A stretch of DNA of 64,000 bases from Thermoplasmata archaeon (GTDB taxonomy: Archaea > Thermoplasmatota > Thermoplasmata > Halarchaeoplasmatales > Halarchaeoplasmataceae), in assembly GCA_046540335.1 (NCBI GenBank), contig JBKHFH010000003.1, forward strand, positions 6,954 through 70,953, written 5' to 3'. The notes under the pieces were generated by a model that saw only the letters and a program-made list of their open reading frames with translations, was not told the DNA's origin and did no database searches. Shown in pieces: positions 95 through 59,836 of this stretch (its first letter is position 1; every line of letters starts with the position of its first letter). The translations under genes and the position numbers were made by a program.

Positions 95-2506
95 TCATCT
101 GGATTTTTCCAGCGACGAAACACCGTCTCTCTTTTCCACTCTATAGACCACATCCGCCAAGTTGACTATCTCGTTCTCATGAGAAACGATGATCACTTGG
201 TCCGCAGAAACTTTGTTTATCACGTCTTTCAGTCTCGTAAGCTGTTCCCTACTGAAGCCGGTCGTGGGCTCGTCTAAAACCAATAGATTGCTCTCAAGTC
301 CGAGTTCTTTTTTGATCATATTGTTGAAAGCCAGTCTATAAGCCAAAGCTACTGAAGTCCTTTCGCCCCCACTTAGATCATCCACCGTGGTCTCGTTGCC
401 CTGAACTGTTACAATGGGCGAAAACTTCTCGTCGAGCCTTGCACTCACATCCGGTTCGTCTAGAATCTCATCGAACCAGCCTCTGAAGAATCTACCGAAC
501 TTCGACCTTATCTGGCCTAAACGGTGCTCTTCTATGTTTTTTATAGTTTCTTTGAATTCATCAGAGATCCAAGTCTTGATATCTTTCAATTCCTCCGCTC
601 TTTCCTTGCTGTCCAGTCTCTCCTCGAGTTCAACTTTTTTCTCTTTTATCTCCGCTTCCAATCGCTCTATATCTGAGGAGAGGTTCTTTTTCTTTTCTAC
701 GAGCCGGCTTTCTTTCTGGATCAACTCTTCATATCTTTCTTTTACTTTTTCATGTTTTTCCTGTGAATAGTCTTCCTTCAGAGAGTCGAATTCTTCTTCA
801 AGATCCTTTTTATTTTCTTTTAATACCTCGAACTCCTCGCTCTTCTTGTTCTGTTTGCGCATCAATTCTCCCTTTTTCTTCAATCTCTCTTTTATCCCGA
901 TGAATTCCTCTTTAAATCTCTCGAGCTCGTTTTTTCTTTCTTTCATTTCCTTGATATCATCTTGGCCGTACTCGAATGACTTGATCTGGTTTTCTAATTC
1001 CTCGGTCTTGCTTTCAAGGTCCTCGACCCTTTCTTCGACTTCTTCTTTCTCTTCCAATTCTTTTTTCAGTCTCTTCTTCTCCTTTATTTTATAGTTAAGG
1101 TCCTCCTCTTTTTTTTCTATTTCCGAGATTTGTTCTGCTAATTCATCTAAATCTTTTTCTAAACCTTCTCTCTCTTCTTCAAGGGCCTTTTCTTCCTCAT
1201 TCAAAGATTCCTTTTCCTCTTCCAAATCTTTCAATATCTTCTCTACATGTTCGCTATCTAGAGGCTGTTTACACTTGGGGCACTGTTTCTCACCTTCTAG
1301 GCCAGATATTTCCTCCTCCTCGCTCTTGATATCTTTTATCTCCTTCTTTACCGCTCTGATATCCCCCCGTACCTCGCTCAATTTTTCTCTTATCTCCGTT
1401 TCTTCTTTTTTGAAATCTTCTAGATCTTCGATCTCCTCTTTTAAACCATCGATCTCATCTACTAATTCTTCCACTTCTTCTTCTTTATCTTCGAGTTCCC
1501 CCAATCTTTTCTTTTTGTTATCCAATCTTAGCTCAATATTATTCTTTTTACTCTCTTTCTTACTCTTCTTTTCCACGATGCTTCTAGCTTCTTCCAGCCT
1601 TTCTGCCATTTCGTCAAATTCCTTCTTCTTTTCTCTTATCTCATCCAACCTTTCTTCGTCTTCACTTATCCTCTCAAGATCCTCTTCGATCTCTTCAAGG
1701 TCCTTTTCAAGCGAACTCAACTTGTCATTTTTTCTTTGAATATCTCTCTGTAGTTCATCTATATCTTCCCTCAATTCCTCTAATTTTTCTCTTTTCACTT
1801 CGATATCCTTCTTTTCGTTCCTGCAGGATGTTAACTCTTCGAGAGTTCCTTTTTTTTCCTCTCTCTTCTCATCGAGTTCTTCCTCTCTCTCTTCTAATTC
1901 ATCTTCGACGTTCTCTATCTTCTCCGCTTTCACCTCCAACTTTCCTATCTCGTTCTTCAAACCGTCTCTCACTATCTTGGTATTTTCAGCGGCTCTTCTG
2001 TAGTCCTCTAAGTTGAATACTTTCCTTATGGATTCCAATCTCTCTTCTTCATTCATCGAGAGTATCTCTTTCATCCTTTCCTGCGGAGTATAGATACCCA
2101 TATGGAAGGTCTCGACCTTCCCGCTAGAAGATTCTCTGAGGCCTAAAAGTTCGTTCACCATCTCTCTCATCTCAGTCCAGGATAGTTCCATCCTCTTGCC
2201 GTCGGTCTCCATATAGGAGTCTTTACCCCATCCACTGCTCCTTTCTTTTACAGACCGGTAGGCAAGATATTCCTGTCCATCCACTTCAAATTCTAGTTCA
2301 ACGGTGGCTTTCTTCGCTCCATGTCTCAATATCTTGTCATAAAAATTCCGCTGTGTAGCCCCAAAAAGGACGAATTCTAAAGCATAGAGTATGGAAGACT
2401 TACCGGAACCGATATCCCCCTGAAATAGAAGGACTCCATCCTCAAATTCTATCTCCTGATGTTGGTAACTTCGGATGTTATCGATCACCATCCTGTTCAG
2501 TTTCAT
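95..2506 (-). CDS. rad50: DNA double-strand break repair ATPase Rad50 (SMC-like, long coiled coil with zinc hook)
   Basis: N-terminal Walker A GDIGSGKSS; roughly 600 aa of E/K-rich coiled coil; central CPKC zinc-hook motif; C-terminal ABC signature LSGGERTSVALAYRLAF and Walker B LLVLDEPTTGFS; overlaps mre11 by 4 bp (ATGA). Confidence 0.92.
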   Translation of the reverse strand: MKLNRMVIDNIRSYQHQEIEFEDGVLLFQGDIGSGKSSILYALEFVLFGATQRNFYDKILRHGAKKATVELEFEVDGQEYLAYRSVKERSSGWGKDSYMETDGKRMELSWTEMREMVNELLGLRESSSGKVETFHMGIYTPQERMKEILSMNEEERLESIRKVFNLEDYRRAAENTKIVRDGLKNEIGKLEVKAEKIENVEDELEEREEELDEKREEKKGTLEELTSCRNEKKDIEVKREKLEELREDIDELQRDIQRKNDKLSSLEKDLEEIEEDLERISEDEERLDEIREKKKEFDEMAERLEEARSIVEKKSKKESKKNNIELRLDNKKKRLGELEDKEEEVEELVDEIDGLKEEIEDLEDFKKEETEIREKLSEVRGDIRAVKKEIKDIKSEEEEISGLEGEKQCPKCKQPLDSEHVEKILKDLEEEKESLNEEEKALEEEREGLEKDLDELAEQISEIEKKEEDLNYKIKEKKRLKKELEEKEEVEERVEDLESKTEELENQIKSFEYGQDDIKEMKERKNELERFKEEFIGIKERLKKKGELMRKQNKKSEEFEVLKENKKDLEEEFDSLKEDYSQEKHEKVKERYEELIQKESRLVEKKKNLSSDIERLEAEIKEKKVELEERLDSKERAEELKDIKTWISDEFKETIKNIEEHRLGQIRSKFGRFFRGWFDEILDEPDVSARLDEKFSPIVTVQGNETTVDDLSGGERTSVALAYRLAFNNMIKKELGLESNLLVLDEPTTGFSREQLTRLKDVINKVSADQVIIVSHENEIVNLADVVYRVEKRDGVSSLEKSR

Positions 2507-3822
2507 CTAATACCGCCTCCAAAGTCCGTCAGAGATATCTGTCCGTCTTTCTGTTTCTCTCTTTCTTCTTTTGAATCTTCATCATCTGTATCTTCCTCAT
2601 GATCCTTGTCTTTCAAGTCTTCTCCGCTTTCCGAGCTGCTTTCATCATACTCATCTCTTTTCTTGATAAGTCCCCATGTTTCGCTCCAGATCCTGTTCTC
2701 GTAATCGGTAGTGGTTTCACCTTCTCTCTGCTGGTTTTTCAATACATTCAGCAGATCCTCTTGAAAAGATATGGAGAATACTCCAGAACTATCCGATTCT
2801 TCCAAAAGGCGGGATTCCATTTCTTCTTCCTTCCCCTCCTTTATATTCACCCTTTCGATCTCTTTACCCTCTAGTCCTCTCTGATTCAGATAAACGGTTT
2901 CAAAACCTCTTTGCTTTAGTGTACGGCGGAGTTCACTGAAGTCTATATCAGAGGGAGAACCACTGGAAAGTGTTCCTGATATTTTGAGCAGGAGTATGTC
3001 ACCCTGGAGATCTCTTTCCCTGAGTTCTTCCAACTCATCTCTCAGTTCATCTATCTTCAATCCTTCAGCGTCTATATGCTCCTTCCATATTTCCGGTTCC
3101 TTAAATGAGACGTATTCAGGTTCCCAATCCTCTACGATATAAAAGCCGCGCTGGTCTCTTTCAAGGTCTGTATAATCCGCTCCAAAAGTCGGACCTGGAT
3201 AGTATATACCTTTTCCCTCATCATATTCGATCTTCGCGTGGATGTGCCCGCCGGCATAATAAGTGAAGTCGTCTGGGAGAAGAGAAAGTGGAAGACTCCT
3301 ATCTTCGTGTATCTCTGCTGGCTTGAGTTCTGCAATAGGTGAATGAAAAACGAAAATACTCTCACCCTTTGCTTCAGGAAACTCTAGTTCCTCAAAATAA
3401 CTGATATCCGTCCTGTTCTTTCTGCCGCTCAATCCTGTTATAGAAACACCGGAGGGGTCTTCCTCGAATTCCAAAACGCCGTCTTCGTCAAGATATTTCA
3501 CCACTTTCTTGAAAACGCCGGCGCTCGCTAGAACATCTATCAAAGAGGCCCGAGATATCTTGTAATCGTGAGAGCCATAAACTGAATATATATTTATACC
3601 TAGTTTACGGGCCTCCATCAGCTTTTTAACAGCTCGGTCTACGATCTCCATATCCGGATGTGGGTTATGAAATAGATCGCCCGCTATGATTATGAAGTCG
3701 ACATCTCTCTGTTCGCTTATATCTATGGCTTTTTCAAAAGCCTTCAGATTGTAATCTCGGAGAACCTGGTCTCTAGAGAACGCGCCAAGATGACAATCAG
3801 CGATATGGGCGAACTTTACCAT
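2503..3822 (-). CDS. mre11: DNA repair nuclease Mre11 (calcineurin-like metallophosphoesterase)
   Basis: N-terminus MVKFAHIADCHLG ... IIIAGDLFH ... GSHD carries phosphoesterase motifs I-III; start/stop overlap with rad50 implies translational coupling. Confidence 0.9.
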   Translation of the reverse strand: MVKFAHIADCHLGAFSRDQVLRDYNLKAFEKAIDISEQRDVDFIIIAGDLFHNPHPDMEIVDRAVKKLMEARKLGINIYSVYGSHDYKISRASLIDVLASAGVFKKVVKYLDEDGVLEFEEDPSGVSITGLSGRKNRTDISYFEELEFPEAKGESIFVFHSPIAELKPAEIHEDRSLPLSLLPDDFTYYAGGHIHAKIEYDEGKGIYYPGPTFGADYTDLERDQRGFYIVEDWEPEYVSFKEPEIWKEHIDAEGLKIDELRDELEELRERDLQGDILLLKISGTLSSGSPSDIDFSELRRTLKQRGFETVYLNQRGLEGKEIERVNIKEGKEEEMESRLLEESDSSGVFSISFQEDLLNVLKNQQREGETTTDYENRIWSETWGLIKKRDEYDESSSESGEDLKDKDHEEDTDDEDSKEEREKQKDGQISLTDFGGGIR

Positions 3823-3925
3823 GCCGCTTCATAACTCACATATCGGTTTATAGTCTTTACCACAGGAGAGGGGAGCGAAAGTGGGGTGAAGGGATAATAC
3901 TAAATTATTCATCCCGAATAACCAT

Positions 3926-4858
3926 TTGATGTTTTGGCTCTCTTATCTTATAATTGCGATAATCTTCGCAGGGTTGATATACGCCTTCAGGTCCGATATG
4001 TACCTGACTCAGGTCTTGATAATAATCAATATGATCATATTTATCTTGATGCTCGCCGGTGAGATGTATCTTGCCGGAATTTATAATACGGTGATCCTAG
4101 ATTTGGCAGGACGAGCGATATTCGTAGGAGATCCTGAGCTATTGTTGGTTCGTGGACACACATTTTTAACGATGATGTTCATACATGGTGGGATAATGCA
4201 TATCTTCGGCAACATCATAATTCTCTTTTTCATAGGGATACCGTTAGAAGATAGAGTGGGAAAAAAGTGGACTTTCCTATTTTATATAATTGCAGGTTTG
4301 ATCGCCACGCTAGGGCAGTATCTTTTTACCTGGCTTCAGTTCGCTTTTGGTGGCGCACCTTTTGATGTGCTTACCACACCAAATCTAGGTGCATCAGGCG
4401 CAGTCTTCGGTATCATGGGGTCCCTAGTATTTCTCTTTCCAAGAGATAAGATAACAATGATAATCCCACCTCTTATCCTACCTAGAGTGAGGGTGGACCT
4501 AGCGGTCGGAGCTTTCATAATGATCCAGACCGGTATCGCTTTATTTACGGGATTAGGTAACACGGCTCACGCCGCACATTTTACCGGTTTAGCTGGTGGA
4601 ATAATCCTCGCATATTATGCAAAGAAGGCCGGTATAGTAGAAAAAGAGAAAGGCCCTATAAGGGATTACACAAAATTGAAAAAGTTAGTTGATAACGAAG
4701 AGAAAGAAAAAATTTATCAAAAAATCATAGATGCTGACGAGAGAGACGTGAAAGAGGCATGGTCGGATCATCTGATCAAAAAATCTCATTGCCCAAAATG
4801 CGGTAGAGATTTTAATAACGATGGGTGTGAATGCGGTTTCGAGGTATGGGAAGATTAA
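3926..4858 (+). CDS. Rhomboid-family intramembrane serine protease with C-terminal zinc ribbon
   Basis: Multi-TM protein with GASGAVFGIMG (GxSG catalytic Ser) and AHFTGLAGG (catalytic His helix); C-terminal CPKCG...CECG Cys4 ribbon. Confidence 0.8.
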   Translation: MMFWLSYLIIAIIFAGLIYAFRSDMYLTQVLIIINMIIFILMLAGEMYLAGIYNTVILDLAGRAIFVGDPELLLVRGHTFLTMMFIHGGIMHIFGNIIILFFIGIPLEDRVGKKWTFLFYIIAGLIATLGQYLFTWLQFAFGGAPFDVLTTPNLGASGAVFGIMGSLVFLFPRDKITMIIPPLILPRVRVDLAVGAFIMIQTGIALFTGLGNTAHAAHFTGLAGGIILAYYAKKAGIVEKEKGPIRDYTKLKKLVDNEEKEKIYQKIIDADERDVKEAWSDHLIKKSHCPKCGRDFNNDGCECGFEVWED

Positions 4859-4905
4859 TATACTTCTCATCCTAAAACACAGGTGATATAATAGGGTGTC
4901 AAAAG

Positions 4906-5499
4906 ATGAAAGTTCCCGATTCATACTATCTGCAGTGTCCTGTTTGCGAGAGAGAAACCCTTCATGAAATCCTAAAGGGCGAAATAGGGACCAAAGGCGA
5001 AGAAGTGACCATCGACGGAGTGGTGAAATGCGAAGAGTGCGGAAATACAAGACATAAAACTATCAGAGAAAAAAAAGCTATCGATGTCCCGATCGTGGTC
5101 AGCTGGAAAGGTGAATCCGAAAAGGATCACATCTCTCTTTATCCCGAGGAATGGGTGCATAAAGGTGACAACCTGATACTTGACGGGACCACCGTAAAGA
5201 TAACCTCGATAGAACAGGAAGAAGGCAGAACTGATTCATCCAAAGTTGAAGATATTAAGAACCTCTGGGCAAAAAAACATGAAAAGGTCAGGGTCAAATT
5301 CACCGTTCACAAGGGGAGGAGCAGCGCTTCAGAAGTCAGAGAGGTCGTGCCTGAAGAAGAGTTCTACGTCAATGATAGGGTAGAAATAGACGGGAACGAA
5401 GCTGTGATACACAAGATAATGACAGACGAAGAGGTAAAAACTAAGGGAAAAGCTATAGCAGAGAATATAAAAAGGATATATGCTAAGAGGATCAGATAA
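4906..5499 (+). CDS. Uncharacterized archaeal zinc-ribbon protein
   Basis: N-terminal CPVC...CEEC Cys4 ribbon followed by a beta-rich soluble domain; no catalytic motif recognised. Confidence 0.4.
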   Translation: MKVPDSYYLQCPVCERETLHEILKGEIGTKGEEVTIDGVVKCEECGNTRHKTIREKKAIDVPIVVSWKGESEKDHISLYPEEWVHKGDNLILDGTTVKITSIEQEEGRTDSSKVEDIKNLWAKKHEKVRVKFTVHKGRSSASEVREVVPEEEFYVNDRVEIDGNEAVIHKIMTDEEVKTKGKAIAENIKRIYAKRIR

Positions 5500-5507
5500 T
5501 CAAAGAC

Positions 5508-5566
5508 CAAAATTTTAAAATATTTCATCAGAAATCAATCAAGTCCTAAAAATAGTAAGAGGAGGT
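5508..5566 (+). promoter_or_regulatory. Predicted archaeal promoter (TATA-like AAATTTTAAAATATTT) and Shine-Dalgarno GAGGAGGT for albA
   Basis: AT-rich TATA-like element about 50-60 bp upstream of the ATG; perfect GAGGAGGT 8 bp before the start codon. Confidence 0.5.
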
Positions 5567-5573
5567 AAGACAT

Positions 5574-5852
5574 ATGGATGATGAAAACACAGTTTTTATC
5601 GGAAAGAAGGAAACCATGAACTATGTTATGGCAGTGGTCACCCAGTTCAAAGAGGGATCCGACGAAGTGATCATAAAGGCCCGTGGAAGAGCTATCAGTA
5701 AGGCAGTCGACGTGGCCGAGATAACTAAAAATAGGTTTCTCCCCGATGCTGATATAAAAGCTATAATAACTGAAACGGAAAAGATCCCGATCGACGAAGA
5801 AGAAGGTGAAACTACCAACGTATCTTCCATCGAGATCACCTTGGAATTATAA
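5574..5852 (+). CDS. albA: Chromatin/RNA-binding protein Alba (Sso10b family)
   Basis: 92 aa; [42 protein letters not shown] matches the Alba consensus; strong RBS. Confidence 0.9.
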
Positions 5853-5921
5853 CTTCGTCCCTTACCCTTTACTTTCTCCTTTCATCGATAATATTAAAAT
5901 AATGTCAACATATCCTTAAAT

Positions 5922-6236
5922 ATGTCAACAATTCAAGACCTGACCGAGGAGGCCAATGAGTTCAGGGATCAAAGAGGATGGAAGAAATACCACACTCCTA
6001 AAGATATTGCGATCTCTATATCGTTAGAAGCTTCCGAACTGCTTGAACTTTTTCAGTGGAAAGATGATTCACTTGAAAATGTAGAGAGAGACCATCTCAG
6101 TGAGGAAATGGCAGATATCTTTATCTATCTTCTTTTCCTTTCAGACGTGACCGATATAAACCTTGAAAAAGCGGTGAGAGACAAGTTAGAGAAGAATAAA
6201 AAGAAATATCCCTCTGATGAGGATCATTTTGACTAG
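5922..6236 (+). CDS. MazG-like nucleotide pyrophosphohydrolase domain protein
   Basis: EEA.E....W....KY..P...A.SLEASELLELFQW ... EEMADIFIYLL are typical MazG/NTP-PPase all-alpha motifs (E-x2-E, E-x2-D). Confidence 0.7.
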   Translation: MSTIQDLTEEANEFRDQRGWKKYHTPKDIAISISLEASELLELFQWKDDSLENVERDHLSEEMADIFIYLLFLSDVTDINLEKAVRDKLEKNKKKYPSDEDHFD

Positions 6237-6280
6237 GGTTAAAAAAATAAAAATATAAAAAGTGGTTTAGAAGAGCTTGT

Positions 6281-6847
6281 TTACTTATTCTGTATGAACT
6301 TCGATACGTACGGACTGACCCCTGGCTTGTCCCTTCTGTAGTGTCCAGACGGATTTCCGTTCAAAAGTTCCTCGAACCATGCTTCGTGTTCTGTCTCCTC
6401 GTGAAGGATCGCCGCTGATAACTCGTAGGTCCTTGGATCCTTTCCATGAGTCATCTTGCAGATCTGAGTGTAAACTCCCACAGCGCATCTTTCCGCACCC
6501 AGTAACACTTCTAATATGTTCTCCGTTGTAGGATCGTCGGGAAGTTTTGCATCTTCACATGCCGCTCTATTGGCAAATTCTCTGATATCATTAGGTATCT
6601 CCCCACCCAACTCATATATACGGGGCAATAGTGCTTCGAAGTGATTCCTGTCTTCTAGTCTTGCGTCTTCGGCTATCTCTTTGATACTTTCCCCTTCCAT
6701 ACCTGTGCAGTTGTTTCTAAGGACGGTGTAATAATAGTAAGTCGTGAATTCAGCTGCAGCTGCATCTACAAGCTTCTCTTTCAGTTCATCTACATCGATC
6801 CCCGCTTCTTCTATCAATTCTACATTTCTTCGCGAAATAGTTCTCAC
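6281..6847 (-). CDS. Ferritin-like diiron protein (Dps / bacterioferritin-like)
   Basis: Paired helical E...E-x-x-H motifs ([20 protein letters not shown]) and a YYYY helix, as in ferritin-like four-helix bundles. Confidence 0.5.
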
Positions 6848-7031
6848 CCAATTACCTAAATGTAATAGTATTAAATAAACTTTACGAATTAATTATTATT
6901 GTTTTCTTAAATAGAACAATATATTACGATATTCGAGCTTTTTTTTGCGATTTATTTGGAAACGTCTCAGTTGTGATCGGGATAGAATCCTTCAAAAAAT
7001 ATATCTAATCATTCTAGCATACGAATATCGT

Positions 7032-8144
7032 ATGTCTTCAGAAGAAAAAGAATGGCCTGACTTCAGATTCACCTTGGAGGAACTAGCAGGAGCAGTAGGA
7101 GATTACGGGACTCTTCTTCCTATAGTTTTAGGAGTCGCAGTAGTTACTGAGATGAACCTGGGCCATATCTTACTGTTCTTTTCTATATGGTACATCTTTA
7201 CAGGCCTTTACTACAGGAAGCCAGTACCCGTCGAACCCATGAAGGCTATAGGGGCGATAATCATAGCCGGTCAGTTCACCCAAACTGAGATAGCAGCTAC
7301 CGGTATAGTCTTAGGTCTCTTTTTCCTAATGTTAGGGTTTTTAGGAGGTATGAAGCTTATAGAAGAAAAGATACCGCAGAGCATCATCAGAGGAGTTCAA
7401 TTGGGACTCGCCCTTATACTCTTAGAGACATCTTTAGACTTTCTGATAACTGACTACACGATTTCTTTTTTCTCTATAGCGATTATAGTTTCATTTTTTG
7501 CCGTTAAACAATTCAAAGAAATACCCGATGTTTCTTCCTTGATAGTTTTAGCTTTAGGCTTCATCATAGGTGTCTCAACTCACGGTTTCCCCCCTATAGA
7601 ACTGATGCCGATTCCTTCAATTCTGATCCCTGATCTGCAGGATTTCTTCACAGGGACTTATCTTTTAGCGCTACCCCAGATCCCGCTCACCGTTACCAAC
7701 TCGATCCTTGCGACCTCTCTTTTGATGAGTGATCTATTCAGAAAAAAACTTGATCCCGACAAACTTTCCAAAACGATAGGATTGATGAACATAGTCTCGA
7801 CACCTCTCAGTGGCTTTCCGATGTGTCACGGATCAGGAGGTCTAGCAGCTCAATATAGGTATGGTGCTAGAACTGGGGGCTCTAACATCCTGAGTGGAGT
7901 TATACTTCTGTTTATAGCCTTCGGCTTTGCCAGTGCAGCGTTCGTTAATATTTTGCCCATGGCCATCTTTGGGGCGCTTCTAGTTTTCGTAGCAGTAGAG
8001 CTTGGAAAGCACTCTTTCAAAACTGAATCCTATCTGATCACGATCATCGTAGCAGTTTTATCTCTTTTAGCAAATATAACCATTGGATTCATCGCTGGTC
8101 TAGGGGTTTATTATCTCATAAAGATTTTAAGTAAGAGTGGATGA
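7032..8144 (+). CDS. MOT1-family (SulP-related) molybdate/tungstate permease
   Basis: About 10 TM protein with VPVEPMKAIGAIIIAGQF and SGFPMCHGSGGLAAQYRYGARTG, the two signature motifs I recall for MOT1 molybdate transporters (PxPVQPMKxIxAxA and FGxMPxCHGAGGLAxQYxFGxRTG). ORF track start 6945; M at 7032 chosen. Confidence 0.6.
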   Translation: MSSEEKEWPDFRFTLEELAGAVGDYGTLLPIVLGVAVVTEMNLGHILLFFSIWYIFTGLYYRKPVPVEPMKAIGAIIIAGQFTQTEIAATGIVLGLFFLMLGFLGGMKLIEEKIPQSIIRGVQLGLALILLETSLDFLITDYTISFFSIAIIVSFFAVKQFKEIPDVSSLIVLALGFIIGVSTHGFPPIELMPIPSILIPDLQDFFTGTYLLALPQIPLTVTNSILATSLLMSDLFRKKLDPDKLSKTIGLMNIVSTPLSGFPMCHGSGGLAAQYRYGARTGGSNILSGVILLFIAFGFASAAFVNILPMAIFGALLVFVAVELGKHSFKTESYLITIIVAVLSLLANITIGFIAGLGVYYLIKILSKSG

Positions 8145-8214
8145 TCCGGATACGCAAGATTTATTAATTCTTAATCCATGGCTGATTCCAGATAGAGTTA
8201 AAAAAGGTGAAATT

Positions 8215-10092
8215 ATGTCAGGACATTGGGGAAAATTGTTGAGGATAGATCTGGGCGACGGCAGTGCTCAGGAAGAAGAACTTTCTGAAGACTTCTTGAA
8301 GAAATTCATAGGAGGCGCCGGTTTTACTACGAAAATACTATATGATGAAGTTGGAGAGGACGTTGAGCCTCTCTCCGAAGAGAACAAGCTGATAATGGCA
8401 CCCGGCCTCTTGGTCGGTCCGAAAGTACCCACGGGATCAAAGACCGCCTTCGGATTCAAAAGTCCACTTACTGGCGGTTACGGTAAGTCCATCGTCGGGG
8501 GTAAATTGGGCGATGAGCTCAAGAAAGCTGGCTACGATGCTCTTATCATAGAAGGTAAAGCGGATGAACGTTCGGTAGTGATTATAGATGACGGAGAAGT
8601 GAAATTGGAAGAAGCCGAAGATATGTGGGGCAAAGATACCCATGAAGCTGGCGACGTGATAAAAGAAAAATACGATGATGTCGAGACCGCAGTTATCGGA
8701 CCCGCCGGTGAAGAACTCTCAAAGATCTCGCTCGTAGAATGTAATGAAAGACAGGCTGGAAGAGGCGGTATCGGTGCGGTCATGGGTTCTAAAAACTTGA
8801 AAGGTATAGGTATCAGAGGATCTAAAGATTATCCGATACATGACAAAGATAAATTGGACGAACTCATCTCCGAATACAGGAAAGAGACACAAGAACAAGG
8901 CAAAACCGATATGGAGTACGGTTCCGGAGAAGCTCTACACCCGCTGAACGTGGAGATAGGGGCTTTCCCGGTCAAGAACTGGGAAGCCGGGTATTTCAAA
9001 GAGGCTTATGAAGAACTGGAAGATCCAGAAGCTGGTAGGATAGATATAGATCCTAGGAAATGGACGGAGGAATATAGAGATGGTAGAAGACCCTGTCCTT
9101 ATTGTACAAAACCCTGCAGCCAGTACTTTAAAGCTGAAGATACGCCGTATGGCGATATAGGAATAGATGGACCAGAATACGAAACTCAATACTCATTAGG
9201 TGGAAACTGCGGTGTAGACGATGTTGAAGCAGTTGCAAAGGCTAACGAACTCTGTGATAAACTGGGCCTAGATACCATTTCAGCAGGAGTGACAATTGCA
9301 TGGGCTATGGAGGCCTATGAAAAGGGATTATTGGAGACTGACTTGGACCTAGAATTCGGGAACGCCGAAGCGATGATAGAAGCCGTTAGAAGGATGGGTA
9401 AGAAAGAAGGTGAACTCGGTGAAATGCTTTACAACGGTGTGAAAGAAGCCGCTAAGAAACTAGGTCAAGGTTCTGAAGAATTCGCTATCCACATGAAAGG
9501 TATGGAACCCCCGGGATACGAGGCTAGAGGTATGTTCGGAATGGGACTCGCTATGGGTGTTGCTCCTAGAGGGGGAGATCACCTCACTTCTTGCGCTTAC
9601 GCCTTGGACTACGGTGGTAGTTTCTGGTATTTTGACGACTACAAGAGAAGAGACGTGGTTTCTAAAGGATTCCCACTAAAGATGATGGAAGACCTGATGA
9701 TGATATTCGATATGACTGGGATATGCAAGTTCTCAAGAGGTATATATCTAGACAAAAATCAGGTCGGTTTGGTCAATGCGATCACAGGATGGGATGTGAC
9801 CAACGGAGAGTTATTGAGAGCTGGTGAGAGAGGCCATAACGTTGCGAAGGCTTACAATGTGAGAGAAGGATTCCAGAGAGAAGACGACTACCTGCCTGAA
9901 AGGGTATATAGAGAAGAGGTCCCCTATGGTCCAAACGAAGGAGCACGCATCAAACCAAGGGATTATGAGGAAGCATTGAACCGATACTATATGGCTAGAG
10001 GTTGGAGTCTCGAAGGCATTCCAACAAAAGGAAAACTTGAAGACCTAGACCTTACCGATGTTGCGGAAGAAGTAGGTGCTACAAAACAGTAA
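8215..10092 (+). CDS. aor: Tungsten-containing aldehyde:ferredoxin oxidoreductase (AOR family)
   Basis: N-terminus MSGHWGKLLRIDLG; KSPLTGGYG pterin-binding loop; 626 aa typical of AOR; Cys residues for the 4Fe-4S cluster; GGTGA RBS upstream of the internal ATG at 8215 (ORF track begins at 8137). Confidence 0.88.
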   Translation: MSGHWGKLLRIDLGDGSAQEEELSEDFLKKFIGGAGFTTKILYDEVGEDVEPLSEENKLIMAPGLLVGPKVPTGSKTAFGFKSPLTGGYGKSIVGGKLGDELKKAGYDALIIEGKADERSVVIIDDGEVKLEEAEDMWGKDTHEAGDVIKEKYDDVETAVIGPAGEELSKISLVECNERQAGRGGIGAVMGSKNLKGIGIRGSKDYPIHDKDKLDELISEYRKETQEQGKTDMEYGSGEALHPLNVEIGAFPVKNWEAGYFKEAYEELEDPEAGRIDIDPRKWTEEYRDGRRPCPYCTKPCSQYFKAEDTPYGDIGIDGPEYETQYSLGGNCGVDDVEAVAKANELCDKLGLDTISAGVTIAWAMEAYEKGLLETDLDLEFGNAEAMIEAVRRMGKKEGELGEMLYNGVKEAAKKLGQGSEEFAIHMKGMEPPGYEARGMFGMGLAMGVAPRGGDHLTSCAYALDYGGSFWYFDDYKRRDVVSKGFPLKMMEDLMMIFDMTGICKFSRGIYLDKNQVGLVNAITGWDVTNGELLRAGERGHNVAKAYNVREGFQREDDYLPERVYREEVPYGPNEGARIKPRDYEEALNRYYMARGWSLEGIPTKGKLEDLDLTDVAEEVGATKQ

Positions 10093-10147: not shown

Positions 10148-11095
10148 TCATCCTACAACGTATTGAAAGATATTTCCAAGTGTATAAGTCAGACCAATAG
10201 CTACGAATATCGCTGATATCCAAGCTCCAGAGGTTAACACTATCTTTCTCTTCCCTACACTCCAGCCACTTATAACCATCCCACTTCCTATGATCGATGC
10301 AATTATGGCCTGGCCGAAAGAGATCGGAACGCCGATAAAAACTCCGATTTGAGCGAGGATCGCTGCCGTTGCTAAAGCCGAAACCGACCTTCTTGGCCCG
10401 AGATTGGAATATTCGAATGTAACAGCCTCGATTATTTTAGGGGACAAAACCCAAGCACCGATAAGAATCGAAAAACCTCCGAGAGGCAATAGCCAAAAAA
10501 GCTCAAATCCCATCCCCATCAAAGGGCCAACTGCCTTTCCTACGGAGTTTGCACCAGCGGTATAGGCCACGAAGAGTCCTAATAATAGGGTCGCATAGTG
10601 GATGGATTTCTTAGATCCTTCCTTGGAAACATACTTTTTAAGCAACCTGGCTATCGAATAGGCAATTATAACAGCCAAAATTGGCACAAGAGCCCAGTAA
10701 CCCACTATCTTTTGGATTGTTACCCATTCCACACTAACCCCAAAACTGAAGGCACTCCCGATAACCGATCCAACGACAGTAAAGGCAGTCGGCATAGGAT
10801 ACTTCGTTAAGACACTTATTATTACAAGTACAGGAGCCACGATCAGTATGCTAAGTGCCTGAAGTGGCTGTATATCTCCGAATATCATCTTGGAACCCAC
10901 TGTTGAGGCCACATTACCCCCTTGGACCACTGCTCCTAGACAGGCAGCTATACCTGCAAGCAGAGCTGATTTCAGGACCCCGATGTTTCTAGAAAAGGTA
11001 ACTGGACCAAAAGCCGGAGGAACAGCTGACGCGCCTATAGATATGCCCATGAAAACAGATGCGATGAATGTGAAAAATATTAGGAAGTCTATCAT
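10148..11095 (-). CDS. PiT-family inorganic phosphate (or sulfate) permease
   Basis: Polytopic membrane protein with two divergent copies of the PiT GANDVANAFG-like repeat (GISIGASAVPPAFGPV; AYTAGANSVGKAVGPLMG). Confidence 0.55.
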   Translation of the reverse strand: MIDFLIFFTFIASVFMGISIGASAVPPAFGPVTFSRNIGVLKSALLAGIAACLGAVVQGGNVASTVGSKMIFGDIQPLQALSILIVAPVLVIISVLTKYPMPTAFTVVGSVIGSAFSFGVSVEWVTIQKIVGYWALVPILAVIIAYSIARLLKKYVSKEGSKKSIHYATLLLGLFVAYTAGANSVGKAVGPLMGMGFELFWLLPLGGFSILIGAWVLSPKIIEAVTFEYSNLGPRRSVSALATAAILAQIGVFIGVPISFGQAIIASIIGSGMVISGWSVGKRKIVLTSGAWISAIFVAIGLTYTLGNIFQYVVG

Positions 11096-11847
11096 TTTCC
11101 CTTTTCCCTAAGACCTCTTTTGATGGTTTTCCTTAGTTCATCATCGGGTATATTAACGGTCAGTAGATAATGGTCATCATCCTTTTCTTCCAAGTTTATG
11201 GAAAGGTGCTCGGTGTCAAAATAGTAGGGATTGAGTTTCAGCATCACTTGTTCGTAAATTGCTTCCTCCATCTTTCGGAGCGATTCTATAGACTTGGAGC
11301 CGATCAGACGGTTAATACTTTTTGATGCGTCTTTCAATTCGGCTGATGGAGATTTATTTTCTTCTGTACCTTTGATTTCCTTCTTTTTATCAGGAGGGGC
11401 AGTATTTTCCTCAGTTCTATCGACATTTTTTTGAGATTTCTTTGACTTGTTGTTTATTAGATTATTCATACCTTTAGAAGCGTTGTCTTTCAATTCTACA
11501 ATAGCTGATTTTCCTTTGTCTTTAGCCCCATTTATGCCCTTTTTAACTTTCTTACCTGCTGATTTAAGTTCTTCGTTTGTTCCCTTGAAGTCCTTCTCTA
11601 CACCTTTCTTTTTGATCGCGGCTTGTTCGGCCGTTCTTTTAGAGAGATCTTTTTCATCTTCTTCTTCTCGAGGACGCCATTTGTTGTAACCTTCTATTGA
11701 ATCATCCATGTTTTCAGCTGTGTCTTCCTTCTCATAACTCTCTTTCAGTATCCTCTCTAAATCCCTTGCAAACCCACATATTTCCTCCCAGTTCCCTTCA
11801 ATCCTTATACCAGAATGTGTGGTTTTCTGCTTTTGTTTACTCATCAT
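11092..11847 (-). CDS. Lys/Glu-rich low-complexity hypothetical protein, translationally coupled to the PiT permease
   Basis: 251 aa, central K/E/N-rich disordered region, ordered C-terminal segment YFDTEHLSINLEEKDDDHYLLTVNIPD; 4-bp ATGA overlap with the downstream permease. Confidence 0.45.
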   Translation of the reverse strand: MMSKQKQKTTHSGIRIEGNWEEICGFARDLERILKESYEKEDTAENMDDSIEGYNKWRPREEEDEKDLSKRTAEQAAIKKKGVEKDFKGTNEELKSAGKKVKKGINGAKDKGKSAIVELKDNASKGMNNLINNKSKKSQKNVDRTEENTAPPDKKKEIKGTEENKSPSAELKDASKSINRLIGSKSIESLRKMEEAIYEQVMLKLNPYYFDTEHLSINLEEKDDDHYLLTVNIPDDELRKTIKRGLREKGK

Positions 11848-13180: not shown

Positions 13181-13738
13181 TTGATAAACTTACCTATGAA
13201 AGAGATAATATCAAAAGCGATGAGCTCAGGGTTAGATTTTTCGCAGAAGGGTGTCCTGAAATCTTTCCTCTACAAAATGGATATCGACGAAGAGACCTAC
13301 GATCGCGTATATGTTCAGATCAAGAATAATGCGATGAAAGATAAAGTCTCGAAGATACCTTTTAAAGACAGGATGGTGATGGTGCCTCAGTGTTTGAGAG
13401 ATCCTGAAAATTGCGAAGCTGAATTGGGTGAATGGGGTCATGAGTGTAACAGATGCGGGAAATGCGATGTAGATAAAATCATGGAGATCGCAGAAGACCT
13501 CGGATACGGTGGTGTATATATCGTGCCGGGTTCCAGTATGGCCAAAAAACTACTGAAGAAGAAAAACTATGGGGCTGTGGTTGCTGTAGCTTGCCATTCG
13601 GAACTTGTAGAAGGTTTTGAAGCCGCACATGTTTTTAACGTGCTTGCTCAGGGCATACCTCTCAAAAAAGAAGGGTGTGTCAACACGGAGGCTGATCTTA
13701 GAGAAATCAAAGAAAAGCTGAGGATCCGGAAGGAGTAA
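13181..13738 (+). CDS. DUF116-family protein with conserved cysteine cluster
   Basis: PQCLRDPENC...CNRCGKC cysteine motif followed by VAVACHSELVEG, which matches my recollection of the DUF116 (PF01976) consensus. Confidence 0.45.
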   Translation: MINLPMKEIISKAMSSGLDFSQKGVLKSFLYKMDIDEETYDRVYVQIKNNAMKDKVSKIPFKDRMVMVPQCLRDPENCEAELGEWGHECNRCGKCDVDKIMEIAEDLGYGGVYIVPGSSMAKKLLKKKNYGAVVAVACHSELVEGFEAAHVFNVLAQGIPLKKEGCVNTEADLREIKEKLRIRKE

Positions 13739-13748
13739 ATATGATATT

Positions 13749-14462
13749 ATGATCCAAGAACTTCCCGTTATCAGCGTGGTCGGTGATTCCGACTCTGGTA
13801 AGACCGAGCTCATCTGTCAGTTGATCGAAGAGCTCAGAGGATCAGGCTATGATGTGGCGACGATAAAGCATACCAGAGGTGATTTCAGCATCGATACTGA
13901 AGATAAAGATACATGGAAACATTCTAAAGCCGGTGCGGAGCTAGTTGTCTTTTCCAGTCCAGAGGAATCCGACTTCTTATACCAACGCTCCTTAGAACTG
14001 GAAGAACTGGTATCACACATCGAAGAATTCGGGGATCATGACCTAGTGCTGGTAGAGGGTATGAAAGAAGAGGACATACCCAAGATAAGCGTTGGAGAAG
14101 GATTTGAAGATGAATCGGGGATGCATTATTCTGGAGATATGGAGACGATCCTAGATTATATAGAGAGAAAAATTGAATTGCATAATATACTCATAGAGCT
14201 GGCCGGTCAGGACTGCGGGGAGTGCGGATATCCGAGCTGTGAAGAGCTCGCAGAATCGATATTAGAAGGTGAAAATTCAATCGATGACTGTCAAAAACTC
14301 GAGAATACAGAAACTGTTAAACTTTGGATAAATGGAGAAAGTGTTTCTTTAGGGAGATTTCCTGCTAATATGGTCGAAAAGACTATCAGAGGGATGCTCA
14401 GTTCCCTAAAAGGCATCGAGGGCGACGAAAACGATATCGAGATCGAGATAGATGAGAGGTAG
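13749..14462 (+). CDS. mobB: Molybdopterin-guanine dinucleotide biosynthesis adaptor MobB fused to a C-terminal Fe-S cluster domain
   Basis: VISVVGDSDSGKTELICQLI P-loop ... ATIKHT ... LVLVEGMK are MobB hallmarks; C-terminal CGECGYPSCEEL...DDC resembles a PF04060-type Fe-S binding domain. Confidence 0.75.
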   Translation: MIQELPVISVVGDSDSGKTELICQLIEELRGSGYDVATIKHTRGDFSIDTEDKDTWKHSKAGAELVVFSSPEESDFLYQRSLELEELVSHIEEFGDHDLVLVEGMKEEDIPKISVGEGFEDESGMHYSGDMETILDYIERKIELHNILIELAGQDCGECGYPSCEELAESILEGENSIDDCQKLENTETVKLWINGESVSLGRFPANMVEKTIRGMLSSLKGIEGDENDIEIEIDER

Positions 14463-39805: not shown

Positions 39806-42800
39806 TCAAAGTTCATATTTATCTTCTCTTTTATTTATTTTTTCTCTACCGAGCTCTCTCTCCAGTTCACTCAAACTCTTACCTTCATCACTTATCTCTT
39901 TAGGTCTCCAGAAGATTTTATCAAAGAGGACTATGATAGCTATAGCGACTATCGTCGTGATGATCCACCAATTCTCTCTCAATCTCTCTGAAAAACTGTC
40001 TTTCTCGATTTTAATTTCCATACTATCCACTGCATTGTTGCCTGCCTCGTCCCAAACTCTGACTTCTATGGTGTGCTCACCCTCTTCAAGTCCGTCAAAA
40101 AGATATTTTGTTTCTTTCCCAACTTCGATCCACTCTCCTCCATCGATCCTTACTTCATACTTTTCTACACCTGACCCATCATCGTAGCCCTCCCAGCGGA
40201 CCCTAATGTTGTCCTCACTCAAGGACTCACCGTTTTTAGGTTCCAATATCTGAATGACTGGCTCAGTCACATCTACTGTGAATGTGACATTATCTTTTAC
40301 TACCTTTCCAGTCTCATCCGCTGCTCTAACATAAACCTCGTACTCGCCCTCTCTAAGATCTGTCAGATTATATTTTTGGCCTGTACCAGCTCTGTTCCAT
40401 CTACCGCCACGTATGCTCACAAAATGTTCCTCAGTATTTTGAGATGTCCACTCCACCGTGACATCGCGGCTGTTAATAGACGCAGCCTCATCTGGCCCCT
40501 TTATTTCCAACTCGACTTTCCTGACACTGAAGCCTACACTGTCATACTTGATATAACCCTCTCCGTCAACAGCCCGAACACTCAGCTTGTAATCACCATC
40601 CTTTAGATCGCTAAAGGTGTACTCTGTTTTGGTACCTACATCTCTCCATTCAGTGGACTCATTATCTCTTCCTTCAAGTCTTATCTCGCTGTATTCCATA
40701 TTTCTTGCCTTCCATTCCACCCTCACCTTTGATCTCCTTTCTATACTCGATGGCCTAGGAGCCTTTATCTCTACAAATACATCGGTTTCAACTTTGAATT
40801 CGACCGAATGGGATGCTGTCTCTTCATCATCTTCTACTATCACCTCAACAGTGTGATATCCATCATCTAAATCTTCAAAAGTATATTCACTCATACCTCT
40901 AACATCTATCCAAGCCCCTCCGTCTAATCTGATTTTCGCATCAACATTCCTTTTCCCACCTTTTAAAGCCCATCTTACATCAACTTCAGATGAGAAAATC
41001 ATGTCTTTATCTCTAGGGTCAATGATGGATACACTGAGTCCATCTACAGGGTCGGTATCTATCAAAGGATACCTGTCTTTGCTGCTATCCCCCATGATCT
41101 CATATGAAATATTCCAGAAGCCGGATTTTGGAGCTTCACCTGCTTCAGGATACCGTATGGCGTAGTTGGACCAATAATTACCCTCCATTTTATGATCCCA
41201 GATATTCCCACCTGTGTCATAAGCTAAACTCTGCTCTTCTAAGCGGGGGTGATCGGCTCTAGTGATATCATTGTGATATATCTTATTTTCATCTGAATTG
41301 ACGACATATAATCCATAAATATCGTTGTTGTAGAATTCATTACCGAAAATAATATTCTGCTCAGAGTATGAAAGGTATGCTCCGTGTATCTGATTATGAG
41401 AGATATTGTTCTCCGATATCGTGTTCTTGTCTGAATCAACCATGTACAACCCTAGATAGTTGTGTTTTATCCTATTGCCCTTTAGGACGTTTCGGTCAGA
41501 ATATCTAAGGGTGATACTCAGACTCTGATCAAATAGAGTATTGTTGACTATCTCGTTACCTTCCGAAAATCCAAGGGTCACACCCAACTTTCCGGACTCT
41601 ATTTCTTTATCCTTTATTACTAAATTGGTAGAGTTCGCTATGAGGATTTGACCAGCGTCTTCTTCAATGATAGCACCGTCTTCATCTACATCCCCATCGA
41701 TATTTTTAAGATAATATATCCGTTTTCCATTCGACAAAGTGTTGTTGTCAGGAATAAAGTGTGTGTTCCAGTATTCGATAGACCGACCTCTCAAATTAAT
41801 ACCTCCCTCATTGAATCTGTTATTGTAGATACTATGGTTTTGGGAAGTGAAGAGTGTTAGACCATAGCCCCCATTATCTGAAAAATTACTAGTGCTGACT
41901 CTGTTACTCTTTGAAGAGAAAAACATCATCCCCGTGCCCCGATTATGCATCATGTTGTTATTTAAAAATAAATTTTTTTCGGAAGACCTAATATAGGCTC
42001 CATAGACATTGTTAAAAGAATGGAGATAAGAAATTTCATTTTCTTCTGAATCATCCATATATATACCGAAGAATCTGTTTTTATATAAGCTCATTCCGTT
42101 GACTTGGTTCATATTAGACTCTTCAAATTTTAGCCCCCTACTGTTGAAAGAAGCATTGTTTTCCTTTAACAGGTTTTCATCAGAGTTCTCCAGTAAAATC
42201 CCTTCGTCGCTGTTGATAACGCTGTTACCTGTTATATCATTGTTGTTAGAATCATCTAAAAAAATCCCATGACCATAGACAGGATGATAGGACTTTCCAA
42301 CACTGTTGTTTTCAATAGTATTTCCTTCTGATGAAGACAGATGGATACCAACATGATTATTCAAAGCTCTATTATCTTCAATTGTATTTCCGCTGGAATT
42401 TTCTAATAAGATCCCACAAGAATTTAGCTCTATCTTATTATCTATGATCAATCCGTTTTTTGTATCAGCCAGATAGATACCACTAGTCCCTGATCGTGCA
42501 TCTCGGCTGCGGTTGGCATTATAGAGTCTATTATCCCTTATTATAAAATGTGAGTCTACATCCTCGATAAAAATGGGAGAAGATTTTTCACCACCGTCTA
42601 TAGCATAACCTTCAATGAGGAACGGGTCTTCTTCGGTACCACTCCCTAACCATCCGTTTTGTTCAACCTTTGTTTCAAATTCCTCATCATCCTTTATATG
42701 TATAGGATTTATCTCTGAATACTCGGAAACATCCTCATTATCTTCGGAGAGTCTAATAGATTGAGAATCAACCCGCCTAGAGGATTGAGTGTCTGTGGTT

Positions 42801-53343: not shown

Positions 53344-54495
53344 GTGAAAAAATTGCAGTATAGAAAATTTGGAGAGATCGATTGGAAACCGTCGGCTCTA
53401 GGTTTTGGAGCTATGAGATTGCCGCATGAGGAAGATGATCGAGGCGCTATAAATGAAGATGAAGCTATAAAGATGATCAGGTGGGCGATCGACAACGGAG
53501 TGAACTATATCGATACCGCCTGGCCCTATCATGACGAAGAGAGCGAAAAGTTGGTCGGAAAAGCTTTGAAGGACGGTTACAGAGAAAAAGTGAAAATAGC
53601 GACAAAACTGCCTTCGTGGGAGGTGGAGGATTCTCAAGATCCTGACGAGTTATTGAACAAGCAGCTGGATAAACTCGATGTTGACAAGATAGATTTTTAT
53701 CTCCTCCATGCCCTGAGTAGAAATCACTGGGAAAATTACCAATCTTTAGATATCGATATATTTGATTGGATGAAGGAAAAGAGAGATGAAGGTAAGATAG
53801 ATTACCTCGGTTTCTCTTTCCATGACGATCTAGAAATCTTCAAAAAGATAGTGGATACTTATGACTGGGACTTCTGCCAGATACAATACAACTATTTGGA
53901 TCAGGAGTTTCAAGCGGGTCGAGAGGGTTTGAAGTACGCCGCTGATAAAGGACTCGGTGTCGTGATAATGGAACCACTTCGGGGAGGAAAATTGGCGAAG
54001 GAACCTCCTGAAGAGATCAAGGAAATTTGGAATGAAGCGGAAAAAGATAGAAATCCGGTGGAGTGGGCTCTGAAATGGTTATGGAATCAGCCAGAAGTCT
54101 CTCTAATTTTGAGCGGTATGAGTAATTTGGAACAGGTAAAGGAGAATGTCAAATACGCCTCCGAATCTGGTGTCGGTGTACTCTCTGAGAAAGATCTCGA
54201 ACTCATAGATAAAGCGGCTAAAACCTACAGAGAGATATCACCAGTTGAATGTACTGGATGCAACTACTGTGTTCCCTGTCCAAACGATGTTTCGATCCCT
54301 AGGAACTTCAGGATGTACAATCAAGCCGAGATATACGATGAATTCAAAAAACAGAAAGAGATCTGGGACGAAAACATGAAAGACGATTCGAAGGCGACGA
54401 ACTGCGTGAGGTGCGGCGAATGTATAGAGAAATGTCCTCAAAACCTCCCGATAATGGATCTACTAGAGGAAGTTTCAGAGTACTTTGAAGGATGA
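53344..54495 (+). CDS. Aldo/keto reductase fused to a C-terminal 2x[4Fe-4S] ferredoxin-like domain
   Basis: AKR motifs (GFGAMRL, IDTAWPYHDE, ...LLHA) and C-terminal CTGCNYCVPCP...CVRCGECIEKCP. Confidence 0.8.
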   Translation: MKKLQYRKFGEIDWKPSALGFGAMRLPHEEDDRGAINEDEAIKMIRWAIDNGVNYIDTAWPYHDEESEKLVGKALKDGYREKVKIATKLPSWEVEDSQDPDELLNKQLDKLDVDKIDFYLLHALSRNHWENYQSLDIDIFDWMKEKRDEGKIDYLGFSFHDDLEIFKKIVDTYDWDFCQIQYNYLDQEFQAGREGLKYAADKGLGVVIMEPLRGGKLAKEPPEEIKEIWNEAEKDRNPVEWALKWLWNQPEVSLILSGMSNLEQVKENVKYASESGVGVLSEKDLELIDKAAKTYREISPVECTGCNYCVPCPNDVSIPRNFRMYNQAEIYDEFKKQKEIWDENMKDDSKATNCVRCGECIEKCPQNLPIMDLLEEVSEYFEG

Positions 54496-59539: not shown

Positions 59540-59821
59540 TCACTTCTTCCTATCGAAGTACCATTTATAGAGTAAAGCCATATCTCTAGGGAATAATGCC
59601 AGGCGATCACCGTCCTGGACTTCTCTTTCAGGATGTGAATATTCTCTATTCAAGAATATATGGCTCACATCACTTTCATCCAGACCGAGATGTTCTAAAA
59701 TATCAGAGATCCGTCCTAAGCTTTTTTCTTCTATCTCTTTTTTGTCGATCGAGCCTGTTTCGACTTTAGTTTCGTCAGCTTTAGATTTAAGTTTACCGTA
59801 CAATTTTATATTTATACCCAT
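59540..59821 (-). CDS. ThiS/MoaD-like beta-grasp protein with C-terminal extension (no terminal GG)
   Basis: IKLYGKLK...VQDGDRLALFP beta-grasp pattern followed by RDMALLYKWYFDRKK; adjacent to a bona fide MoaD/SAMP gene. Confidence 0.4.
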   Translation of the reverse strand: MGINIKLYGKLKSKADETKVETGSIDKKEIEEKSLGRISDILEHLGLDESDVSHIFLNREYSHPEREVQDGDRLALFPRDMALLYKWYFDRKK

Positions 59822-59836
59822 TTTTTCAACCCTATC

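Follow-up and report, generated by a model that had tools for sequence, protein, structure and literature searches.

Surveys of molybdenum and tungsten (Mo/W) use list only three uptake systems in prokaryotes, all of them ATP-binding cassette (ABC) transporters (PMC6147048; PMC13144720), and the carrier MOT1 figures in them as one that prokaryotes lack or that eukaryotes invented (PMC6147048 of 2018; PMC13144720 of 2026). In the 2018 census, the genomes of 13 archaea and 278 bacteria that use Mo/W were left without a known transporter (PMC6147048), the former including 4 Thermoplasmatales and 3 Methanomassiliicoccales and the latter 92 Bacteroidetes and 7 Spirochaetes (PMC6147048 Tables S4 and S5). 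The eukaryotic MOT1 proteins that have been characterised carry molybdate at nanomolar concentrations and are blocked by tungstate but not by sulfate (PMC10385300). In bacteria, a Caldithrix gene with the PF16983 domain (Cabys_2008) lies within a locus for molybdenum cofactor (Moco) biosynthesis, where a Moco riboswitch precedes the gene by 1130 nt (PMC5317091), and sulfate-reducer homologues (Desulfobacula TOL2_16610 and Desulfobacterium HRM2_13280) have been read as molybdate carriers, a membrane proteome having revealed one of them (PMC5840216). The family, its bacterial presence and its predicted function are already known, in databases and a few genome papers. Here we analyzed a 64,000-nucleotide stretch of contig JBKHFH010000003.1 from a Thermoplasmata archaeon (hereafter the window), in which a gene for a MOT1-family permease precedes one for an aldehyde:ferredoxin oxidoreductase (AOR). 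We propose, with a probability of roughly 55%, that the permease is a Mo/W oxyanion importer feeding the AOR. The gene pair and the two permease signatures are located as follows:

7032-8144, plus strand: MOT1-family permease, 370 aa, a STAS-less carrier of the SulP/SLC26 fold with 14 predicted transmembrane (TM) helices
7221-7262, plus strand: signature motif PVPVEPMKAIGAII, residues 64-77, just ahead of a short helix (71-80) in the structural model
7806-7877, plus strand: signature motif LSGFPMCHGSGGLAAQYRYGARTG, residues 259-282, extending across a short helix of the model (269-276)
8215-10092, plus strand: AOR-family aldehyde:ferredoxin oxidoreductase (pterin cofactor), ATG at 8215, 625 aa, AFOR_N E=3.5e-72 and AFOR_C E=5e-114

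The open reading frame enclosing the permease spans 6945-8144 on the plus strand; its most likely start is the ATG at 7032, with which the N termini of 14 homologues agree. The protein is 100% identical to a protein from a metagenome-assembled genome (MAG) named “putative sulfate/molybdate transporter” at NCBI (assembly GCA_046538555.1). The initial annotation had placed it in the MOT1 family and 70 bp upstream of the AOR gene on the same strand, had quoted two motifs and had proposed a profile search; the gap is as described, both motifs occur in the translation (PVEPMKAIGAIIIAGQF, residues 66-82; FPMCHGSGGLAAQYRYGARTG, residues 262-282), and PF16983 (MFS_MOT1) matches the permease in two stretches, at E=2.1e-52 and 176.6 bits with a cut-off of 30. 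The same domain is found in all close homologues. The competing assignment that it had named, a STAS-bearing SulP transporter, did not hold: the Pfam scan detected no STAS domain, the chain stops after the last TM helix, the model contains helices only, and the NCBIfam sulP model TIGR00815 scores 24.3 bits, far under its cut-off of 380. A second Pfam match, to PF00916 (Sulfate_transp), is weak (35 bits). With neither a full-length TIGR00815 match nor a STAS domain, the permease has the transmembrane fold alone in common with canonical SulP/SLC26 sulfate permeases.

For comparison with the signatures of characterised MOT1 proteins, we used the patterns given in a 2023 review, PXPVQPMKX(I/L)(A/G)AXA and FGXMPXCHG(S/A)GGLAXQ(Y/H)XFG(A/G)RXG (PMC10385300). 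PVPVEPMKAIGAII agrees with the first at 12 of 14 positions, with 2 substitutions, and LSGFPMCHGSGGLAAQYRYGARTG agrees with the second at 20 of 24 (F to L, G to S, M to F and F to Y), so that the strict pattern fails while the core PxCHG[SA]GGLAxQYxxG[AG]RxG is retained. Among prokaryotic homologues, the core PMCHG[SA]GGLAxQYR[FY]GARTG is nearly invariant, whatever their genomic context. Searching 1.84 billion representative proteins with phmmer, we obtained 2471 relatives of the permease at E<=1e-3, of which 367 at E<=1e-30. Chlorokybus, Micractinium, the plant Asimina and further eukaryotes supply relatives of 446-618 aa with the exact eukaryotic signatures; these are 33-37% identical to the permease (E=1e-40 to 1e-45), the three named organisms giving 36-37% identity and E=1e-41 to 1e-43. 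In a pairwise BLASTP comparison, the Chlorokybus MOT1-type protein aligned with the permease over its full length at 31% identity (E=2e-51). The Asimina triloba homologue (KAL6010679.1) is mislabelled at NCBI as “TATA-binding protein-associated factor mot1” through a clash of gene symbols.

The AlphaFold (AF2) model of the permease has 14 helices (pLDDT 77, pTM 0.77). Its top Foldseek matches are the transmembrane domains of SLC26Dg, SLC26A11, AtSULTR4;1 and BicA, with a TM-score of ~0.72, a probability of 1.0 and 13-19% identity; bicarbonate, chloride, fumarate-type and phosphate carriers are found among its structural neighbours. No PDB chain matched the permease by sequence (phmmer, E<=0.01), and hence, by sequence, the PDB contains no MOT1 structure. 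The two signatures (PVPVEPMK... and ...PMCHGSGGLAAQYRYGARTG) fall on the pair of short helices that the model shows at residues 71-80 and 269-276; these probably correspond to TM3 and TM10 of the SLC26 fold, the anion-binding region in SLC26-type transporters. Comparing the N-terminal with the C-terminal half by BLASTP gave no significant internal repeat, and both halves were detected by the Pfam profile alone. Because the PF16983 score, the homology to eukaryotic MOT1, the retained signature cores and the SLC26 fold agree, assignment of the permease to the MOT1 family, a STAS-less branch of SulP/SLC26 with 14 TM helices arranged as a 7+7 inverted repeat, is well supported. Family membership, fold and motif conservation are in this sense established, as are the conserved gene neighbourhoods described below.

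The downstream protein is covered at full length by AFOR_N and AFOR_C, in agreement with its earlier description as a Mo/W-pterin AOR. Its best solved relative is the Pyrococcus furiosus AOR 1aor (E=2e-108), followed by FOR, 8c0z, Haloferax WOR83 (9q1t) and WOR5; the depositors' names for 8c0z and 9q1t contain “tungsten-containing” and “tungsten-dependent”, respectively, and the remaining top solved matches presumably bind tungsten as well. By its closest solved relatives, which are tungstoenzymes, the AOR is predicted to be tungsten-type.

We then examined the gene neighbourhoods in the best 80 of the 433 species genomes that encode a relative of the permease. In this set, an AOR follows the permease in one halophilic Thermoplasmatota subclade only (loci L004, L005, L007, L008, L009, L011 and L014); the same order occurs on soda-lake metagenome contigs (L092-L098 and L101-L102), bringing the related loci to ~17, and permease identity across the AOR-linked Thermoplasmatota loci is 67-79%. 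The nearest relatives of the permease come from MAGs of hypersaline and soda-lake sediments labelled Thermoplasmata, Thermoplasmatota or Candidatus Natronoplasma, which belong to Ca. Halarchaeoplasmatales, a halophilic order that has been proposed and whose members are thought to be salt-in strategists (PMC11332174, PMC11287216). In one locus, AOR paralogues 63% identical to each other's family flank the permease on both sides (L009:7960-13068), and in two others an ArsR-family gene is inserted between permease and AOR (L011, and L014:11118-11438). The pairing recurs in Atribacteria-like contigs from marine sediment (L121, L125 at 310-6354, and L131), where genes for a DASS carrier, a MOT1-like protein, TauE and a 633-aa AOR follow one another on one strand; in sister variants of this locus (L089, L128), a GntR gene and a proline racemase gene stand where the AOR would be. 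Given that AOR genes are few per genome and that, in two unrelated lineages, one lies no more than two genes from the permease, we judge, roughly and with no statistic computed, that a chance origin is unlikely. Conservation of the linkage, which the initial annotation had left to be checked, is therefore borne out in part: it extends to ~17 loci and to Atribacteria-like contigs, and within Thermoplasmatota it is restricted to one subclade whose sister lineages have no AOR at this position.

A second line of evidence comes from Methanomicrobiales (Methanoculleus, Methanofollis, Methanoregula and relatives), in which, at 41 of 49 loci, a Mo/W ABC binding protein, a permease or a homologue of the molybdenum storage protein (MoSto) is encoded no more than 5 kb from the MOT1 homologue; the remaining loci mostly have short flanks or a WtpA recognised by clustering only. 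In the usual layout, modA, a trmO-like gene, modB and modC run divergently ~260-300 bp upstream of the MOT1-like gene, and wtpC, wtpB and wtpA lie downstream. The assignments rest on 420 bits for WtpA (cut-off 355) and 82 bits for ModA (cut-off 62.5), and the MoSto homologues, located 1-4 kb upstream of the MOT1-like gene, match MoSto beta 2ogx_B at E=9e-55. In Methanoregula, the MOT1-like gene sits between wtpB and wtpA. Since the association with Mo/W genes has outlived rearrangement among Methanoculleus, Methanofollis and Methanoregula, it argues for a Mo/W role of the archaeal family.

These genes form a compact Methanomicrobiales Mo/W island (L024-L083; e.g., L072:7211-14164, L036 and L051) in which MoSto alpha/beta homologues and a small gene with no family assignment are joined by modA/trmO-like/modB/modC, by the MOT1-like gene and by wtpCBA; no description of methanogen MoSto homologues in such an island was found in the literature searched. 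A TrmO-like gene (PF01980) lies inside the modA-modB-modC operons of Methanomicrobiales (L051:8118-8660) and another directly follows the MOT1-like gene on a halophilic Thermoplasmata contig (L012:7951-8487), so that a tRNA-methyltransferase-like protein recurs with Mo/W transport genes. On the latter contig, a “WtpC” match near the permease was rejected as a Mo/W link, as it is the ATPase of a generic ABC-2 exporter.

In the window, the permease-AOR pair is accompanied by the following genes:

6281-6847, minus strand: ferritin-like protein (PF00210), divergent from the permease, syntenic
10148-11095, minus strand: PiT/PHO4-family anion permease (PF01384, E=4e-36), convergent with the AOR, syntenic
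11092-11847, minus strand: DUF5828 protein (PF19146), sharing 4 bp with the PiT gene, syntenic
13181-13738, plus strand: DUF116 protein (PF01976, E=4e-45), ending 10 bp before the MobB-FeS gene
13749-14462, plus strand: MobB-FeS fusion (PF03205 + PF04060), a pterin-cofactor maturation accessory; mobB TIGR00176, 118 bits with a cut-off of 76
59540-60115, minus strand: two small ThiS/MoaD-like genes (PF02597, E=1.6e-14 and 6e-7), directly downstream of the second AOR
60142-61866, minus strand: second AOR-family gene (AFOR_N + AFOR_C), 574 aa

The order ferritin-like, permease, AOR, PiT-like permease, DUF5828 is conserved. The ferritin-like gene, for whose product we know of no Mo/W role, lies directly upstream of the permease in L005-L008 and L092-L098, with 90-94% identity, and the PiT/PHO4 gene is syntenic in L005, L007, L009 and L092-L097. 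The best NCBIfam match of the latter, to the PiT-type sulfate permease CysP and not to PitA, is weak (94 bits with a cut-off of 400). Because synteny with the AOR cluster extends to the PiT/PHO4 and DUF5828 genes, the AOR lies between two putative oxyanion carriers. Divergence along this region is uneven: compared at the DNA level with a Ca. Natronoplasma MAG (L007:9248-13108), window positions 6281-10092 show 93.6% identity in the AOR, 80.6% in the ferritin-like gene and 66.9% in the permease. This mosaic suggests that either the AOR gene was exchanged recently or the permease allele was replaced, the breakpoints lying where the two genes meet.

The pterin-cofactor genes that had been singled out earlier, the MobB-FeS fusion and the MoaD-like genes, are both real, and the latter lie beside a second AOR-family gene that had gone unmentioned. 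The first ThiS/MoaD-like protein (59837-60115) ends in GG, and the DUF116 gene and the MobB-FeS fusion may form a functional pair. Searching the 64-kb window by tblastn at E<=1e-3 gave no match to WtpA, WtpB, WtpC, ModA, MoSto or TrmO, and Pfam found no ABC transporter or sulfate-assimilation gene among 28 further window proteins. An Rfam scan of the window gave no match. Elsewhere in the window, positions 53344-54495, 45 kb from the permease-AOR pair, encode a fusion of an aldo/keto reductase with a 4Fe-4S dicluster domain, and its homologue in a related locus (L008:14624-15775) lies four genes off that pair. A 1782-aa protein (39806-45154, minus strand), probably a secreted or surface protease, combines a subtilase (S8) with NosD/beta-helix repeats and Ig-like domains.

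Transport specificity is beyond what sequence can tell; we infer which substrate is carried (Mo/W, not sulfate), the import direction, the coupling ion and the functional tie to the AOR, the Mo/W function on the grounds of identity to eukaryotic MOT1, adjacency to AOR in two lineages, the Mo/W loci of Methanomicrobiales and the published Caldithrix and sulfate-reducer cases. In the model that we favor, the MOT1-type secondary carrier would most likely import the tetrahedral group-6 oxyanions tungstate and/or molybdate; the imported oxyanion would enter pterin-cofactor synthesis, for which MobB-FeS and MoaD-like genes are present in the same window; and the metal would end in the adjacent AOR and in the second AOR of the window. 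The position of the permease beside the AOR suggests a candidate ABC-independent route for tungsten or molybdenum in prokaryotes. MOT1-like genes also occur, among the best 80 of the 433 species genomes, in these phyla of Mo/W users without a known transporter, an overlap that is suggestive and that we take as a lead and not as a test.

Several observations weigh against this reading. The permease does not match the exact eukaryotic signatures (4 and 2 substitutions), and the glutamine of PVQPMK is replaced by glutamate (PVEPMK) in every prokaryotic homologue examined (48 compared). Mo/W transport by prokaryotic members of the MOT1 family appears so far to be a predicted function, and many other homologues have uninformative neighbours. 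An Rfam scan at gathering thresholds, covering 144 kb from 12 loci with the DNA upstream of the bacterial homologues, gave one tRNA and no Moco riboswitch. In Thermoplasmatota, the AOR is missing beside the permease in the sister lineages L010, L012, L013 and L099. Methanogens have the carrier together with Wtp/Mod ABC systems, so that it would be a supplementary route there and need not be an alternative. Finally, the intergenic regions raise the question of whether permease and AOR are expressed together, as two promoter-like elements are present:

6991-7006, plus strand: promoter-like A/T element TTCAAAAAATATATCT, ~30 nt before the permease ATG, aligning with the TCAAAAGATTTAT element conserved in five related loci
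8152-8169, plus strand: conserved BRE/TATA-like element ACGCAAGATTTATTAATT, in the gap that separates the permease stop codon from the AOR start

Both elements resemble archaeal BRE/TATA promoters. In an alignment of the permease-AOR gap from six loci, a ~19-nt core, ACnCAAGATTTATTArT, with 17 invariant columns lies just past the permease stop codon in all six, and a Shine-Dalgarno sequence, AAAAAGGTG, is conserved ahead of the AOR ATG; the rest of the gap is poorly conserved and is longer in three of the six loci. The conserved BRE/TATA-like element suggests that the AOR probably has its own promoter, so that co-transcription with the permease is not supported, and the two genes would be linked by location, each with a promoter-like element of its own. 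We considered whether both elements contain a common regulatory motif and rejected this; the motif is not enriched window-wide and was treated as an ordinary promoter. The earlier suggestion of a carrier coupled to an AOR as an alternative Mo/W supply therefore stands as far as the Mo/W contexts go, and is weakened by the promoter-like element in the gap and by the ABC systems that accompany the methanogen carrier.

The explanation that best survives beside Mo/W import, and one that we nonetheless consider unlikely, is that the permease carries sulfate, or is a broad, low-affinity carrier of sulfate/molybdate/tungstate-type oxyanions serving general anion nutrition, the position of the AOR being without functional meaning. 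The name given to the protein at NCBI and the weak PF00916 match would fit, as would an AOR with a promoter-like element of its own. Homologues ~58% identical to the permease and with the same signature residues lie near genes for DASS, TauE, PAPS reductase, ATP sulfurylase and sulfatase, a setting that fits sulfate and weighs against Mo/W: in L030, L089 and other Atribacteria-like loci and in L090, DASS and TauE adjoin the MOT1-like gene, with PAPS reductase, ATP sulfurylase or sulfatase within 6 kb. In 22 other loci, TauE is the commonest neighbour family, yet makes up just 4 of 110 proteins. A purely sulfur-related reading of the DASS/TauE loci is in turn weakened, because three such loci carry an AOR just downstream. 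A comparison of homologues from Mo/W and sulfur contexts for discriminating residues yielded no specificity marker, the signature regions being essentially identical; a single substrate range for the family is therefore probable, and one broad specificity could fit all contexts. Against sulfate speak the insensitivity of characterised MOT1 to sulfate inhibition, the TIGR00815 score (24 bits vs 380) and the missing STAS domain, which has been described as needed for sulfate transport by SULTR proteins (PMC9147641). Neither the Mo/W island kept through rearrangements in Methanoculleus, Methanofollis and Methanoregula nor an AOR adjacency that arose in two unrelated lineages is readily accounted for by general anion nutrition.

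A role in Mo/W homeostasis, and not in supply, seems to us still less probable. Here the protein would be an exporter or a bidirectional facilitator acting against an excess of molybdate or tungstate in anion-rich brines, for example to spare a tungsten enzyme from molybdate. The hypersaline or soda-lake sediment habitat and the methanogen gene's position beside high-affinity importers and MoSto-like storage proteins are consistent with such a role, as are the ArsR-family regulators, which adjoin the permease in L015, L049 and L086 as well as in L011 and L014; some plant MOT1 paralogues shift molybdate between compartments and not into the cell (PMC9147641). However, CrMOT1 and AtMOT1.1 mediate uptake (PMC9147641, PMC10385300), and the occurrence of the gene in phyla often devoid of known importers is better explained by import. 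AOR yields carboxylates, and DASS carriers often move carboxylates. A third alternative, in which the permease carries some other anion, such as bicarbonate, selenate or an organic acid akin to those that AOR consumes or releases, and resembles MOT1 through ancestry only, would draw on these AOR products, on the DASS gene next to the MOT1-like gene in Atribacteria-like loci and on the diversity of SulP/SLC26 substrates and of the structural neighbours, and is very improbable given that the two predicted binding-site signatures are common to eukaryotic MOT1 and nearly invariant, and that the Mo/W ABC and MoSto context is unconnected to such substrates.

Returning to Mo/W import, a MOT1-type secondary carrier that fills part of the transporter gap and serves tungsten enzymes is now a directly testable claim, and cultured hosts should exist, as named strains (e.g., Methanoculleus palmolei DSM 4273) are among the hosts of MOT1-like carriers. 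If the claim is true, reconstructions of metal use and ancestral-state analyses that ignore the MOT1 family need correction, and the origin of the plant and algal molybdate transporters shifts into prokaryotes; if the protein is a general sulfate/oxyanion permease instead, the finding is ordinary. In the literature searched, we found no description of the AOR pairing, of the Methanomicrobiales Mo/W/MoSto island context or of the implication for tungstate. A wider generalization, to which we would give somewhat less than even odds, is that prokaryotic MOT1-like carriers constitute a fourth, ATP-independent system of tungstate/molybdate uptake beside ModABC, WtpABC and TupABC, delivering tungstate to the AOR in the present case, explaining many of the transporter-less Thermoplasmatota, Bacteroidota and others, and forming the prokaryotic root of eukaryotic MOT1.

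Compared with known systems, the permease would share with WtpABC, TupABC and ModABC the presumed task of providing Mo/W oxyanions for pterin cofactors, and a MOT1-like gene stands among wtpABC, modA and modBC in Methanomicrobiales; the proteins are unrelated, those systems relying on a binding protein and ATP, whereas the permease is a single-polypeptide secondary carrier. A bacterial precedent for a secondary permease supplying molybdate or tungstate alongside ModABC is PerO of Rhodobacter capsulatus, a non-ABC permease reported to import molybdate and other oxyanions (Gisin 2010, cited in PMC5840216); PerO belongs to another protein family and is not known to be homologous to MOT1. With SulP/SLC26 proteins (SLC26Dg, BicA, AtSULTR4;1 and SLC26A11), the permease shares the predicted transmembrane fold with its 7+7 inverted repeat and a weak PF00916 match, and differs in lacking a STAS domain, in its 13-19% identity and in its TIGR00815 score far under the cut-off. 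The published prokaryotic homologues of Caldithrix, Desulfobacula and Desulfobacterium belong to the same family, and their molybdate transport was likewise deduced from homology and context, but they are bacterial, and Moco-linked or unlinked rather than paired with an AOR. The eukaryotic MOT1 proteins (Chlamydomonas MOT1, Arabidopsis MOT1.1/SULTR5;2 and Neurospora MOT-1) have in common with the permease PF16983, the absence of STAS, the core signatures and 31-37% identity over the full length. Unlike the archaeal protein of 370 aa, they reach ~450-540 aa, with a long central loop and tails that it does not have; it reads PVEPMK for PVQPMK and LSGFPMCHG for FGxMPxCHG; and, whereas they are tied to nitrate reductase physiology, it adjoins a tungsten-type AOR. 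The permease is thus a new member of a family known from plants and algae, and not a new kind of system.

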